Shown: positions 6,496 through 15,545 of the stretch, piece after piece | Layout of the letters: each line of letters starts with the position of its first letter | Numbering within the stretch: position 1 is the stretch's first letter | Source: Escherichia phage YDC107_2 | Length of the DNA stretch: 18,617 bases | Strand: one strand, 5' to 3' | Sequence record: CP025713.1 | Made by a program: the position numbers and the translations under genes | The notes under the pieces: generated by a model | What the model was told of the DNA's origin: nothing | The model's database searches: none | What the model saw: only the letters and a program-made list of their open reading frames with translations

Positions 6496-6790
6496 GCTTT
6501 TTTTGCTTACCACCAATGCGGTTATTTGCGCCGGTATAGCAGTTCGAGTTGCCACATTTCGGAGAAACGGTTCTCAACACAGGCGATGGGGTGGGTGGCT
6601 TGCTTATTTCCTGATTGTTGCTGCGGCCAGCATTCCAGTTCGTGTCGCTTATGCAATCTGGTTACGCACGCCAATGGTTGTGGATTTATCTGAGGTCATT
6701 ATCAACGCTGTCATGCTTGCTGCAGTCATTAAAACGCGCGGTAACGTAGTTCAGATTTTCAAAATAACGAGGTCTAAACATGGAGATTAA
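6482..6790 (+). CDS. second small membrane protein of the lysis cassette (holin or lysis accessory, 102 aa)
   Basis: Intact track ORF with GGAG upstream; two to three hydrophobic helices; overlaps the end of the preceding gene and the start of the endolysin. Confidence 0.45.
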
Positions 6791-7409
6791 ACAATTCCAG
6801 CGAGCTGCTGGTATCAGCGAGGAACTGGCCGCTCGCTGGTTCTCGCATATAACTTCTGCGATGAAAGAGTTTGGTATCAGCAAACCAGAAGATCAGGCAA
6901 TGTTTATTGCTCAGGTCGGGCATGAGTCTGGAGGCTTCACCCGGTTGCAGGAAAATTTCAACTACAGCGTAACCGGATTGGCTAACTTCGTTCGGGCTGG
7001 GCGTCTCACTCAGGGGCAGGCTAATGCACTTGGTCGCCGTGCTGGTGAACCACCATTGCCACTCGAGCGCCAGCGCGCGATCGCAAATCTGGTGTACAGC
7101 AAACGCATGGGGAACAATGCCCCTGGTGATGGCTGGAATTACCGTGGGCGCGGGCTTATCCAGATTACCGGTTTGAATAACTATCGTGACTGCGGAAACG
7201 GTCTGAAAGTTGACCTGCTGGAGAATCCTGAACTGCTGGCGCAGGACGAATACGCGGCTCGTAGCGCGGCGTGGTTCTTTGCCAGCAAAGGATGCATGAA
7301 GTATACCGGTGATATTGCACGTGTAACTCTGATTATCAATGGTGGCCGGAACGGCATCGACGACCGGCGCGCGCGGTACGTCACTGCCAGTAAGGTGCTG
7401 GCTATATGA
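6780..7409 (+). CDS. endolysin, glycoside hydrolase family 19 (chitinase-like) type
   Basis: 209-aa intact ORF; the motifs QVGHESGGF and [16 protein letters not shown] are characteristic of GH19 phage endolysins (from memory); GAGGT RBS; start overlaps the preceding gene. Confidence 0.75.
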
Positions 7410-7888
7410 TCTGGGCATTCGTAAAAGCATATTGGAAACAACTGATTATCGTGGTGATGCTTGCTGCTCTGTTCATCGTCGGAGTGGTTGCCTGGAATAT
7501 ACACGGCAGTCGCCAGTACGATGCCGGGTATGCGCAGGCGGAAGAAGACCGCAAAGACGAAGAAGACAAAGTTCGTCAGTACTACGAACAGGAGAAAGTG
7601 ACCAATGAACGTGAAGCGCAGCAGAGAATCGACCAGGCGCGCAATGATGCTCTTGATGCTGCCGCTCGCGCTGGCAGGTTGCAGCAACAACTCTTTGCCA
7701 TCCGTGAGCAGCTCAGGCAGTATAACGCCATTGTCGGCGCTGGGACGTCAGCCGCAGACACCGGAGTTTTGCTTGCCGACGTGCTCAGCAAATCTCTCGA
7801 GAGAAACAGACAACTGGCAGAGTATGCTGACCGGGCAGCCGAAGCCGGAAGAGTCTGCGAAAAACAGTATGACACCCTGACAAGATAG
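7406..7888 (+). CDS. Rz: Rz-like inner-membrane spanin
   Basis: 160 aa with an N-terminal transmembrane helix ([18 protein letters not shown]) and a long charged coiled-coil-like periplasmic region; the ATG overlaps the endolysin stop (ATGA). Confidence 0.6.
7605..7880 (+). CDS. Rz1: Rz1-like outer-membrane lipoprotein spanin embedded in the +1 frame of Rz
   Basis: Track ORF lies wholly inside Rz in another frame; it has a signal peptide with lipobox LALAGC followed by a Pro-rich mature region (classic embedded Rz/Rz1 architecture). Confidence 0.5.
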   Translation: MNVKRSRESTRRAMMLLMLPLALAGCSNNSLPSVSSSGSITPLSALGRQPQTPEFCLPTCSANLSRETDNWQSMLTGQPKPEESAKNSMTP

Positions 7889-8061
7889 CATGGCATTTTT
7901 CATGGTACTGATTTCCGGTGACGGTATATAAAACGGTACGGTGAAAATCATGTTGCAGGAAGTTGTTATCAGTCAATTAGTTATGGTATCCGTAAATAAT
8001 TGAGTGGGAATGATTAACAGCTAACTCATAGCAAATCATTCCTATTCAGATGCCAACTCAA

Positions 8062-8092
8062 CCCTCTGTTTTTGCAGAGGGTTTTTGTTTTT
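8062..8092 (+). terminator. rho-independent terminator ending the late/lysis transcript
   Basis: Stem CCCTCTG (8062-8068) / CAGAGGG (8075-8081), 6-nt loop, followed by TTTTTGTTTTT. Confidence 0.6.
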
Positions 8093-8147
8093 ATGTATTC
8101 ATTTCTATTCACTCTACACCATATTTTTCGGCGGTACAGGTGACGGT

Positions 8148-8164
8148 ATTACCTTAAAGGTATA
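8148..8164. promoter_or_regulatory. operator-like palindrome, site B (ATTACCTTAAAGGTATA)
   Basis: TTACCT-N3-AGGTAT, one mismatch to the motif; about 42 bp upstream of the int start and flanked by the TGACGGTAT repeats. Confidence 0.45.
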
Positions 8165-8205
8165 CTCTCATACCGTCATGAAAATGGTTTCTATACGGGT
8201 GAATT

Positions 8206-9456
8206 GTGCTTACCGATACAAAATTAAAAAACCTCAAGCCGCAGGACAAACTGTACAAGGTCTCCGATCGTGACGGGCTGTATGTAGCTGTGCTTACGTC
8301 AGGCACGGTCTCATTTCGTTATGACTACCGTATCAACGGTCGCCGCGAAACACTGGTAATCGGGCAGTATGGGCGTGACGGTATCAGCCTGGCAGAAGCG
8401 CGGGAAGAACTGATTGCTGCAAAGAAGCTGCTTAAAGCAGGCCAGTCACCGGCTGCGGCTAAACGTGACGGTATCAAAAAGATTCGTGGTGCCGAAACGT
8501 TTGCGGTACATACCGACAGTTATATGAAACACGTCATCCTGGCTGAAAGTACCCGCGCAATGAAGCAGGCAGTGATCGACCGTGACATACTTCCGGTTCT
8601 TGGCAACAAAATGATGGCTGAAATTACCACATCGATGGTTCGTGATTTGTGTGACCGGATTGTCGAACGCGGTGGCCGGGCAACAGCAGTGCAGGCCAGG
8701 GAGATCATCAGCAGCGTATACCGTCACGCCAATGACCGTGGTCATGGTTTGTTTAATCCTGCGGCTGACATTAAGCCTTCGTCTATCGCCATATTTAAAC
8801 CACGAGAGCGAACACTGACACCAGAAGAAATTGGCCTGTTCTTCCGCACGTTGGATGCCATTGGTGCTATGGGCACTATGAAAATGGCTTTAAAACTGGT
8901 GCTTATCACTATGGTTCGTAAGGGCGAATTCACCAATGCAACGTGGGATGAAATAGATTTTAAAAAATGGACATGGACAATTCCTTCAGACCGCATGAAG
9001 GGAAGCCGGGCGCATGTTATTTACCTGCCTAAACAGGCTCAGGATATATTGGTCGGGTTGCAGATGTGCGCTGGTGGAAGTGAATATCTGGTTCCTGGTC
9101 GTTACAATTTCCGGAAGCCATTATCTAATGCCGCGCTGAACTCTCTGATCGACAGAACGGTGAAAATAATAAATGAAGATGGTGAGCATATTCAGGATTT
9201 CACCGTACACGATATGCGCCGTACAGCCAGTACGTTGTTGCATGAGGCTGGTTATCCTTCAGACTGGATTGAAAAGGCTCTGGCACATGAGCAGAAAGGT
9301 GTGCGCGCCGTATATAACAAAGCGGAATACGCCAGACAGCGCGCCTACATGTTGCAGCAGTGGGCCGATATGATTGATTCCTGGATTAACGGGGAGCATA
9401 CGGATCTGATTCCGTTCTCCCCGTCGAAGTTTGAGAAGTGGATGGCGGGGGAATAA
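8206..9456 (+). CDS. int: tyrosine recombinase / phage integrase, P4-like with N-terminal arm-binding domain
   Basis: 416-aa intact ORF with GTG start. The N-terminus LTDTKLKNLKPQDKLYKVSDRDGLYVAV is typical of the arm-DNA-binding domain of P4-family integrases; the C-terminal catalytic region carries the HxxR…Y pattern (…HDMRRTASTLLHEAGY…AHEQKGVRAVYNKAEY). Confidence 0.85.
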   Translation: MLTDTKLKNLKPQDKLYKVSDRDGLYVAVLTSGTVSFRYDYRINGRRETLVIGQYGRDGISLAEAREELIAAKKLLKAGQSPAAAKRDGIKKIRGAETFAVHTDSYMKHVILAESTRAMKQAVIDRDILPVLGNKMMAEITTSMVRDLCDRIVERGGRATAVQAREIISSVYRHANDRGHGLFNPAADIKPSSIAIFKPRERTLTPEEIGLFFRTLDAIGAMGTMKMALKLVLITMVRKGEFTNATWDEIDFKKWTWTIPSDRMKGSRAHVIYLPKQAQDILVGLQMCAGGSEYLVPGRYNFRKPLSNAALNSLIDRTVKIINEDGEHIQDFTVHDMRRTASTLLHEAGYPSDWIEKALAHEQKGVRAVYNKAEYARQRAYMLQQWADMIDSWINGEHTDLIPFSPSKFEKWMAGE

Positions 9457-9459
9457 CGT

Positions 9460-9654
9460 TTAATTATTCTGCTGATTTTCTTCCATCTCGGCTTCTGCTG
9501 CCAGTGATTCAATTTTATCTGTGAATATTGCTGACAGTGTTGCAAATTCAGCATCAGTGACAGCGGGAATTGGAACAAACCTGATCCCGCTGTGTGCAAG
9601 CATGTTTGCAGTTTCAAGGCATTTCCTTAAATCTGATGGTGATGCCCTGTTCAT
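9460..9654 (-). CDS. small acidic protein (64 aa) translationally coupled to the methyltransferase; function unknown
   Basis: The ATG at 9654..9652 overlaps the methyltransferase stop (ATGA); it is in frame with track ORF 9460..9774; sequence MNRASPSDLRKCLETANMLAHSGIRFVPIPAVTDAEFATLSAIFTDKIESLAAEAEMEENQQNN. No homology recognised. Confidence 0.35.
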   Translation of the reverse strand: MNRASPSDLRKCLETANMLAHSGIRFVPIPAVTDAEFATLSAIFTDKIESLAAEAEMEENQQNN

Positions 9655-10301
9655 GCTGCACGCTCCCGCCCCTGGTTGTCTGTTGGTGACAGCGGAGCAT
9701 TGCTGAATGCATTTGTTAATCTGGCAATATCCAACGCGTATCCAGGGTGTAGTTGCACTGCCGGGTCTTCGCACTGATTACCCCAAACATCGAAACCATG
9801 AGACGACTGGCGGGCGAACAGTTCAATGCGAGAAACATCGCCTAACAATTGCACAAGTTTTTCACGAACGATATCTGGTTTTCTTGAATGCTCAAGCCGC
9901 GGTGCGGTAAATGACTGAACGATCCCTGCATTAATGCGCGTAGGTAGTTTTCCCTTTACTGCAAACAGGCAATCTTCACTATTGGCGCGAGTCATGTGAC
10001 CCATACCCATAACCAGTTTATCTGGTTGTCGACTACCACATTTTATCCACGTGAATCCCTTCATGGTCATCAGACGGAATCCCCAGGCCTCAACAACTTT
10101 TAGTGCTTCGAGTGGTTGTGTTGGCACCCACCACATGGCCAACAGACAGTTTTCATCGGCCAAATCCCACACAGGAAGGCGGCAGATATCCAGCACACTC
10201 ATAACCGGATATTTAAAACCGGCACCGCGATTACCATCTGCGGCTTTGTCCCGGTATACCCAGGGTGGATCTGCATAGATTAGTGTGTATTTCTTAGTCA
10301 T
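9651..10301 (-). CDS. DNA N6-adenine methyltransferase, MT-A70 family (orphan phage methylase)
   Basis: MTKKYTLIYADPPW… carries the DPPW catalytic motif of MT-A70 / Dam-like N6-adenine methyltransferases. The likely start is the ATG at 10301 (the track extends upstream to 10313). No restriction partner is visible. Confidence 0.7.
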   Translation of the reverse strand: MTKKYTLIYADPPWVYRDKAADGNRGAGFKYPVMSVLDICRLPVWDLADENCLLAMWWVPTQPLEALKVVEAWGFRLMTMKGFTWIKCGSRQPDKLVMGMGHMTRANSEDCLFAVKGKLPTRINAGIVQSFTAPRLEHSRKPDIVREKLVQLLGDVSRIELFARQSSHGFDVWGNQCEDPAVQLHPGYALDIARLTNAFSNAPLSPTDNQGRERAA

Positions 10302-10702: not shown

Positions 10703-10951
10703 TCATGCCGCGTTGCTCACGGGACGATATACACGTTGCTGAACAGGAGGTTTTTTACCCTGGAACTCTGCCGGGCTTGCTGCCTGACGTTCATCAAGCC
10801 AACGCTCAACTTCATCACGGTTCCATGCGCAGCGTTTATCGGTGATATACCAGCGTTTAGGAAATTCCCCTGCGCGCTCCATACGGTCGATAGTGCTCCA
10901 TGACAGTGGAACCACCGCCAGGAGTTCCTTCTTACCTAATGCACCTTTCAT
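10703..10951 (-). CDS. AlpA-family phage transcriptional regulator / excisionase-like HTH protein
   Basis: 82 aa; LLAVVPLSWSTIDRMERAGEFPKRWYITDKRCAWNRDEVERWL matches the AlpA pattern (…LSRSTIYR…G.FPKP…AW…E.WL). Confidence 0.65.
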   Translation of the reverse strand: MKGALGKKELLAVVPLSWSTIDRMERAGEFPKRWYITDKRCAWNRDEVERWLDERQAASPAEFQGKKPPVQQRVYRPVSNAA

Positions 10952-13362: not shown

Positions 13363-13948
13363 TTATTGTTTGTTTTTTTCGTTCTGGTTGATGACAAATT
13401 CAATGTAACTTTCGATCTTTGCTTTCTCGGTTTCGGGTAACAATGCGTAGCGCGAGCGATCATAGTTGATGGTCGCAGGGTCGTGCGGGTGAATCAGTAA
13501 TTCATAGCCGTGACGCCCGAATGCGGATGCAACATTCTCCAGGGTGGAAATGGAAACGCTGACCTCATTGTTTAACAGGCGGCTGATTGTCACCTGGGCG
13601 ACGCCGGATGCGCGGTGAAGTTTTCCCTGTGTTGAAAGGTCGCGGCTTTCGCTCATCCAGCGTTCCAGGTTGTGAGCCGCCAGCTGGCCAATGTCGCTTG
13701 GGCCGACAGGCTGAAAACCTTCCTGAGAAAGCGAGCGATCGATATCAAGCCAGTTACGGGGTTTATTGGCGGCAGCTTCAATTTTTCGCGCAACCTGATC
13801 GCCGATAACCTTCTTACCAAGAGCCCAGCGGTTTTACCAGATTTGCCTGAGTTCCAAGTTTTTCAGCCATCCGCGTCTGAACACCATTGAATTCACGGTC
13901 GATCAAGTCGTTGAGATTTTGCCTGCGGACGTCCTGGATACTTTTCAT
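13363..13948 (-). CDS. immunity repressor candidate: CI-like protein with two HTH-like regions and no recognisable LexA-like S24 cleavage domain; one frameshift
   Basis: Minus-strand ATG at 13948 gives MKSIQDVRRQNLNDLIDREFNGVQTRMAEKLGTQANLV… (HTH), which stops after the A-run near 13830; the next frame continues …GKKVIGDQVARKIEAAANKP… into track ORF 13363..13656 (second HTH-like …GKLHRASGVAQVTISRLLNN…). It is divergent from the Cro-like gene with operator palindromes on both sides. Confidence 0.6.
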
Positions 13949-14698: not shown

Positions 14699-15545
14699 AT
14701 GAGCAGACATGCAACAGATTGGGCCTGGGAGACAGATCCAGGTAGCTCGTCATTAAAGCTCATACTGCTCTCGATGGCTGACAGAGCCGAATGAATATAA
14801 CCTCTGCTACCCCAGCATAGAACGCCTCGTTAAAGACACTTGCCTGAATAAAAAAACCGTGCAGGCCGGGCTTATATCGCTCATGAAAATGGGGCTTATT
14901 TCAGAATACCGGAGAGAGAAAGGGAGCGACGAAAAGAGTGCGGGTTTTCTCTCTTAATATAACCAAAAACGGGAACATTAAAGGCAACCGGGAAGGGGTA
15001 ATGAACCGAAAGCGGTAATGTTACCGGAAAACGGGAATATACCCAAAAAACGGGATGTTGAATGATCCCAAAAAACGGGATGTTGAATGATCCCAAAAAC
15101 GGGATCCAGAACCAGTCATATAACCAGTCATTTACCAAGAGAGGGAGAGCAGGACAAAAAACGGGGATTCTGTGCATCATGACCCCGGCGCAAACAACGC
15201 CGTGATGAATAACTTTGTTCCTCCTGGTGGGCTAGGGCAATTAGGCAAATTTGTCATGCATGAACAATGGCGGCCATCAGATGATTTCTTCGGAAAAGCT
15301 CATTGCAGGGGATCTACCTGGACAGTCTGCCAACGGCACAGGAACTTGCAGAGTTCAGAATTTACTGGATGGCTGAGGGTAAGGCATACCATCAGGCACA
15401 GTGGGAGCAGAAGCTGGCAAGGCGGCTGCAGATTAGCAGACAGAAGCAATCAACATTACCTGATAACAACGTTCCGCACTGGAACAGCCCTGAAGCATGG
15501 AGGATTTCTTGTGAACAACGTTTTTACCGCGATACAAAACCGTGA
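14699..15545 (+). CDS. replication initiator (lambda O-like organisation): N-terminal HTH domain, internal origin iterons, C-terminal DnaT-like domain; reading frame broken in several places
   Basis: ATG 14699 with GGAG RBS gives MSRHATDWAWETD…; after a shift near 14775-14790 it continues …NEYNLCYPSIERLVKDTCLNKKTVQAGLISLMKMGLI… (replication-protein HTH). The iterons lie at 14963-15170. Track ORF 15303..15545 (…TAQELAEFRIYWMAEGKAYHQAQWEQKLARRLQ…) resembles the C-terminal domain of E. coli DnaT from memory. Confidence 0.5.
14963..15170. repeat. origin-of-replication iterons (AAAACGGGA-type direct repeats)
   Basis: The core ACGGGA/ACGGGG recurs six times at 14969, 15031, 15050, 15075, 15099 and 15161, including two identical tandem 25-bp copies CCCAAAAAACGGGATGTTGAATGAT (15042-15066 and 15067-15091). 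The region also holds a palindrome CGGTAATGTTACCG (15013-15026) and a direct repeat ACCAGTCAT (15111-15119, 15124-15132). Confidence 0.55.

Follow-up and report, generated by a model that had tools for sequence, protein, structure and literature searches.

A probable guaA-directed attP site with predicted arm-type repeats extending into the integrase gene of a phiV10/epsilon15-like Escherichia phage

Gene order and boundaries of the region

The region of interest, positions 7889-8205 of the 18.6-kb stretch of Escherichia phage YDC107_2 DNA that was analysed as a whole (hereafter the window), is the exact 317-bp gap between the stop codon of a DUF2514/Rz-like gene (7888) and the GTG start codon of an integrase gene, int (8206). 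Phage DNA is contiguous across the int boundary, as originally predicted: the gap has the lysis cassette on its left and int with the early genes on its right. The order holin, endolysin, Rz-like spanin, gap, integrase and leftward early genes is common to the window, to Escherichia phages EC.W1-9, vB_EcoP_ZX5 and phiV10, and to Salmonella phage epsilon15. Over the lysis-attP-int segment (6500-10000), identity is 94-96% to these Escherichia phages and 82% to epsilon15. The window is phage DNA throughout and derives from a phiV10/epsilon15-like podophage (genus Uetakevirus); no record identical to it was present in the collections searched, and it is a mosaic relative of phiV10. A scan of the window for tRNA and tmRNA genes returned none, and an Rfam scan of 7500-8700 at E <= 1 gave no match.

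The int gene (8206..9456, + strand) encodes a tyrosine integrase in which Pfam recognizes an N-terminal arm-binding domain (Arm-DNA-bind_3, residues 2-87, E 4e-20) followed by Phage_int_M and Phage_integrase. The N-terminal domain matches the solved N-terminal domains of CP4-like integrases (3JU0/3JTZ), the catalytic part has marginal similarity to lambda Int (E about 5e-4), and the sequence includes VRKGE, HDMRRT, LAH and VYNKAEY. A small DNA-binding protein of the AlpA family (10703..10951, - strand; Pfam Phage_AlpA, E 3e-5), whose phiV10 homologue is annotated as AlpA family, is a candidate excisionase (directionality factor).

The attP core and its counterpart in guaA

Four sequences were aligned: the window as attP, the empty site of K-12 MG1655 as attB, and the two prophage junctions of strain YDC107 as attL and attR. 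Over both junction segments this prophage and the window are 100% identical. The sole segment common to all four is the 17-bp ATTGAGTGGGAATGATT (7999..8015, + strand), which bears out the earlier proposal that the gap is a candidate attP. The final five codons of guaA (I-E-W-E and the stop codon TGA, the latter at 8011-8013) are reproduced in the core, which then ends in TT. The target lies at the guaA 3' end, in a gene that encodes a protein and not a tRNA or tmRNA; the prediction had looked for the shared core at a tRNA or tmRNA 3' end, and in this it was mistaken.

When the 317-bp region was used to search 5426 complete E. coli genomes, 564 of them matched. Among the lysogen matches listed, the int-side match covers only 7999-8205, at 100% identity, with guaA immediately before it and an integrase gene after it; the lysis-side match stops at 8015 and in YDC107 adjoins yfgI, just upstream. 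The distance from the end of the core (8015) to the start of int (8206) is 190 bp. In vB_EcoP_ZX5, amplification and sequencing of attB, attL and attR located this 17-mer at the guaA 3' end and 190 bp from int, on its upstream side; according to that study, phiV10 and epsilon15 have an attP of identical sequence (PMC9782041). The window thus has the core, the 190-bp distance and the guaA target of these three phages, and an attP at guaA is already known for close relatives of the phage studied here.

Within the core, the octamer GAGTGGGA occupies 8002-8009. This octamer has been proposed as the core recombination (crossover) motif of a related guaA-targeting island, GIsul2, whose excision and integration at guaA were demonstrated experimentally (PMC9376610). 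The sequence suggests to us a 7-bp overlap, GAGTGGG; the heptamers on either side of it, AATAATT and AATGATT, form an imperfect inverted pair and may be the core-type sites. We consider it very probable that the gap is the attP of a temperate phiV10/epsilon15-like podophage.

Putative arm-type repeats flanking the core

Three exact copies of the 9-mer TGACGGTAT, two direct and one inverted, had been noticed in the gap, and they are present at 7919 (+), 8141 (+) and 8170 (-). The window holds six copies in all, every one of them within 7919-8726, where 0.07 would be expected; none of 200 shuffles reached six. The original prediction had reasoned that a genuine attP would share its core with a host locus and that its repeats would not recur at similar density elsewhere. 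The core is indeed shared with host guaA, and the remainder of the 18.6 kb contains zero copies of TGACGGTAT. The shorter motif CGGTA[TC] occurs in 7900-8530 at a density about 14 times that of the rest of the window, with degenerate partners of the exact copies at 7934, 8132, 8504 and 8510.

To the left of the core, the P arm carries an exact site, GTGACGGTAT (7918..7927, + strand), 80 bp from the core and invariant in the alignment of relatives. A degenerate second copy, AAACGGTAC (7931..7939, + strand), follows 12 bp after the first; it is conserved in relatives, and its putative function is suggested by the CGGTA[TC] density. To the right, the P' arm opens with a degenerate copy, GGCGGTAC, followed by an exact GTGACGGTAT at 8140-8149 (together 8130..8149, + strand; invariant in the same alignment), and continues with the exact inverted copy of TGACGGTAT (8170..8178, - strand), whose offset is conserved.

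Seven diverged relatives in the attP configuration were compared (epsilon15, SPN1S, PAT1, Tyrion, BUCT554, phiV10 and a Klebsiella prophage). In all seven the motif offsets from the core start are fixed at -80, +142, +171/172 (inverted), +377 and +467, so that the positions hold in relatives of about 80-85% identity. At +171/172 the inverted copy deviates by one position in Tyrion, by one in the Klebsiella prophage and by two in BUCT554; the copy at +719 is variable. In the epsilon15 record (AY150271.2) the GTGACGGTAT 10-mer is annotated at four direct positions as an 'integrase' protein_bind feature. The inverted copy, the degenerate copies and the pair at 8503-8518 within the int open reading frame (ORF), all included in our reading, are unannotated there.

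The repeats flank the core on both sides, differ from it in sequence, and co-vary with the integrase lineage. From this comparative evidence, and by analogy with the epsilon15 annotation, the TGACGGTAT repeats are expected to be arm-type sites of Int. The earlier description of arm repeats around the core was therefore right as to their placement on both sides and too narrow as to their extent, as the array is not confined to 7889-8205 and continues into int.

The integrase and the guaA-targeting family

The integrases of epsilon15, CMGI-3 and related elements group together as a cluster directed at the guaA 3' flank and distinct from the tRNA-targeting P4 cluster (PMC8138268). The assignment of Int to the P4 type consequently holds in the broad sense, given the Arm-DNA-bind_3 domain joined to a tyrosine recombinase catalytic domain, but not at the level of the cluster. 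Members of the guaA cluster (epsilon15, CMGI-3 and GIsul2, within the IntSXT subgroup of tyrosine recombinases) share with the window phage integration at the guaA 3' end; CMGI-3 and GIsul2 are, however, genomic islands or ICE-like elements, unlike the podophage described here.

A scan of one genome per species yielded 47 int homologues. Nearly all of the analysed homologues for which upstream sequence was available lie directly after a guaA-type 'EWE-stop'. Between guaA and int the most repeated 8-mer is TGACGGTA, in homologues down to about 47% protein identity, and such repeats were seen in many Proteobacteria, among them Chromobacterium, Rhodocyclaceae, Cupriavidus, Caulobacter and Phenylobacterium. 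In a homologue from a Tepidiphilus metagenome-assembled genome (38% identical), TGACGGTA is replaced by seven copies of ATGGGCACA at -241 to -37 from the int start. A repeat that changes together with its integrase is what arm-type sites predict, and in Tepidiphilus the arm-type specificity of the family seems to have switched. At another int-homologue locus, TTGGGGCC occurs three times. The spacer from guaA to int measures 300-370 bp in distant homologues and encloses all of their repeats, compared with 204 bp here; distant members of the cluster thus have an entirely intergenic array, whereas that of the window lies partly inside int.

Repeat copies within the integrase gene

Three further exact copies of TGACGGTAT fall within the int ORF, at 8376 (+), 8466 (+) and 8718 (-). 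The first two are parts of complete GTGACGGTAT sites, at 8375..8384 (+ strand; codons 57-60, offset +377 conserved) and 8465..8474 (+ strand; codons 87-90); both encode RDGI, and both are annotated 'integrase' in epsilon15. A third locus, 8503..8518, is a head-to-head degenerate pair, GCGGTAC and ATACCGACA, the inverted member having one mismatch; it is invariant in relatives, save that among the seven compared the Klebsiella prophage, and it only, lacks the inverted copy (+511). The copy at 8718..8726 (- strand), the sixth exact one, is mutated or absent in several relatives.

Constraint on these sites was assessed with a codon alignment of 33 int homologues, in which use of the majority codon was scored at every column where the amino acid was conserved, and synonymous-codon conservation was followed in a sliding scan over the first 330 codons. 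In the full set, synonymous conservation was highest at 8374-8385 and 8461-8475, the site at 8375-8384 ranking top among the 33 homologues. In the enterobacterial set all nine of the nine best windows fell on motif copies (8503-8518, 8371-8391 and 8461-8478), with 8503-8518 in first place. The 8718 copy had no excess synonymous conservation among the 33 homologues and is probably fortuitous and non-functional. The repeat array therefore probably runs about 320 bp into the int ORF, giving a functional attP of approximately 7915-8520.

The RDGI peptide occurs twice in the arm-binding domain, 30 residues apart, and both occurrences are encoded by the identical 12 nt CGTGACGGTATC (8374-8385 and 8464-8475); the domain predicted to read the arm motif is thus itself encoded by motif-bearing DNA.

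Two other accounts of the repeats have to be weighed. One holds that the copies at 8376, 8466 and 8718 are by-products of coding, generated by the RDGI repeat and codon bias, and that only the intergenic copies are real arm sites. The two direct copies do encode R-D-G-I in frame, so that protein constraint contributes to their conservation; the 8718 copy, variable as it is and free of excess conservation, behaves as this account would have it, and distant homologues keep every repeat in a longer intergenic region. Coding alone, however, sits poorly with an unbiased 330-codon scan in which synonymous conservation peaks at precisely 8374-8385, 8464-8475 and 8503-8518, with the use of identical codons at the two RDGI sites across 12-13 nt, and with the third locus, which encodes AVTD rather than RDGI and yet bears the motif. 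We regard the coding account as unlikely. A still less probable explanation, to which we attach little weight, concerns the inverted TGACGGTAT pair at 8141-8178, which in the int leader would function at the RNA level, folding into a hairpin such as an RNase III processing site, instead of serving Int as DNA sites. The epsilon15 record annotates an 'RNaseIII' site over the equivalent of 8141-8178, and the RNA fold of this segment is stable (-18.9 kcal/mol, z = -3.3). A hairpin is nevertheless the automatic by-product of two inverted protein sites; in eight relatives the changes in the 9-bp stem are exclusively pair-breaking (AA twice, GG once), with zero compensatory changes, the same 9-mer stands single and direct at four other places that have no hairpin partner, and the motif follows the integrase family across phyla.

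The reading we prefer remains that of arm-type sites for Int in the gap and in the 5' part of int. The distal copies in the ORF may serve regulation rather than recombination. A more far-reaching version, which we put forward tentatively and think somewhat improbable, is that the P' arm reaches into int, to about 500 bp from the core, and includes three codon-constrained sites in the DNA encoding the arm-binding domain, with an operator-like palindrome between the inverted arms at the int promoter, and that Int, and perhaps the immunity repressor, controls int. Were it true, expression of int would be governed through the same DNA that forms the intasome, and the minimal attP would be unusually long, at about 600 bp.

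Other elements of the gap

The 9-bp inverted repeat with an 18-nt spacer noted in the gap is present as GGAATGATT (8007-8015) and AATCATTCC (8034-8042), and the repeat search scored it as 15 nt long at 87%, with the arms 18 nt apart. It is not a separate element but overlaps the core, which contains its left arm; the right arm is specific to the phage. The repeat (8007..8042) is partly conserved in relatives and may be a further core-type contact or a chance occurrence in AT-rich DNA.

The terminator that had been placed in the gap was likewise found. It is Rho-independent (8060..8093, + strand), with a stem at 8060-8083 and then a T-run, and is annotated in phiV10 and epsilon15; it ends the lysis operon and, after integration, guaA. 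The phage stem AACCCTCTGTTTTTGCAGAGGGTT closely resembles the terminator of guaA itself in K-12 MG1655, AACCCTCTGTTACTACAGAGGGTT, and by virtue of this resemblance an integrated guaA keeps both its coding end and its terminator. The phage apparently carries a replacement terminator for the gene behind which it integrates.

Between the P arm and the core lies a predicted IHF-consensus-like site, TATCAGTCAATTA (7967..7979, + strand), which we take to fit the IHF consensus WATCARNNNNTTR; the epsilon15 record annotates IHF sites around the core, at the place corresponding to TATCAGTCAATTA. In the attP regions of phiV10, epsilon15 and vB_EcoP_ZX5, which are 94-98% identical to that of the window, the GTGACGGTAT sites, the terminator and the IHF-like sites stand at the same offsets as in the window, and we see no substantive difference between them.

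The element called operator site B in the prediction is almost certainly the operator-like palindrome TTACCTTAAAGGTAT (8149..8163), which has one mismatch to TTACC-N5-GGTAA and overlaps a -10-like TATACT (8161-8166). At up to one mismatch, 10 sites of this family occur in the window where 0.46 would be expected, and its consensus is that of the sites annotated 'repressor' in epsilon15. The palindrome is kept where Int is at least 79% identical, including epsilon15, which has the same operator consensus, and is lost beyond. The ten sites (2594, 6215, 8149, 13230, 13292, 14004, 14052, 14389, 16337 and 16400) are concentrated around the immunity region, and there are pairs among them with a spacing of about 62 bp. 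A sigma-70 consensus scan revealed no + strand promoter for int; it gave one weak minus-strand match, a count not above that of shuffled sequences. A 12-mer shared with position 14881 (TCATGAAAATGG) was discarded as being at chance level, since 65 of 200 shuffles do as well.

Proposed mechanism and comparison with other integration systems

In the mechanism we envisage, Int (8206-9456) would recombine the 17-bp core (7999-8015) with the identical guaA 3' end, strand exchange probably taking place within GAGTGGG(A). The N-terminal arm-binding domain of Int would be expected to bind the TGACGGTAT repeats, with one full and one degenerate copy to the left of the core and a right-hand array that would span the int promoter region and enter the int ORF, while IHF-type bends would fold attP into an intasome, as in lambda. 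After integration, guaA would have int as its neighbour (at attL) and yfgI would have the lysis cassette (at attR); the core would supply the last codons and the stop of guaA, and guaA would gain the phage-borne terminator. Transcription of int is probably regulated by Int, and perhaps by the repressor, through the inverted arm pair and the operator-like palindrome upstream of the gene.

Lambda has a heterobivalent integrase, arm-type and core-type sites, IHF and Xis, in an attP of about 240 bp. The present system resembles it in that the integrase has a separate arm-binding domain, putative arm sites are repeated to the left and right of a short core, IHF-like sites are predicted and a small protein is a candidate for the excisionase. 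It differs in arm motif, core and target, in a much longer array that runs into int, and in the position of attP upstream rather than downstream of int; its attP, spanning about 600 bp, is also long in comparison with that of lambda, and the outermost sites lie as far as 510 bp from the core. Satellite phage P4 and its cluster integrate into tRNA genes. With P4 the window has in common an int that adjoins attP and repeated Int sites that overlap the int promoter region, an overlap that suggests autoregulation, and CDD labels phiV10 Int as belonging to the INT_P4 family; the integrase of the window nonetheless falls in the separate guaA-targeting cluster, and no tRNA or tmRNA is involved.

The value of the analysis lies chiefly in correct annotation of the attP core, of its guaA 3'-end target in place of the expected tRNA, and of the configuration of the window. 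Three modest new points are the synonymous constraint inside the ORF, the operator-like site at the int promoter, and an arm motif that is common to the family but replaced in one lineage. The arm motif, its replacement and the in-ORF constraint may help in building integration vectors and in delimiting guaA-borne islands; these additions leave current understanding unchanged.

Configuration and source of the window

The two arms are joined through the core, so that the window contains attP and not attL or attR. Its most likely source is a free phage genome; the internal junction of a tandem lysogen is less likely. An intact attP occurs in seven complete E. coli chromosomes; in every one of them the match falls at three places, which is the number expected from a tandem lysogen at guaA. 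The arrangement was verified for strain Z1323CEC0007 (NZ_CP148463.1, 3,557,000-3,639,000), where the order is guaA, attL, prophage, attP, prophage, attR and yfgI, the two tandem prophages being identical and phiV10-like, with the intact attP between them. Two stand-alone circular records of 41,027 bp from duck E. coli assemblies (NZ_CP079771.1 and NZ_CP079768.1) also match the window and suggest free or replicating phage DNA in those cultures.

Of the sources listed in the original prediction, an unintegrated phage genome fits these data, and the internal attP of a tandem lysogen has to be added to the list. The prediction also allowed for a prophage integrated elsewhere, and the window could in principle come from one at another chromosomal site, its attP being a silent, unused copy, as might be imagined from 18.6 kb without any host DNA. 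We hold this to be very improbable: all seven complete genomes with an intact attP have the three places of the tandem-lysogen pattern, the other intact copies are the 41-kb circular records, and the lysogens split exactly at the core, with breaks at 7999 and 8015 among the matches listed. The E. coli genomes searched offered no example of integration at a site other than guaA.

The repressor gene of the window (13366-13948, - strand) encodes a product with 100% amino-acid identity to WP_000836290.1, but in two frames, the frame shifting after codon 38 at an extra T in a T-run near 13832-13835. Two explanations offer themselves for this frameshift: a clear-plaque (lytic) mutation, in keeping with an unintegrated genome, and an error in sequencing the homopolymer.
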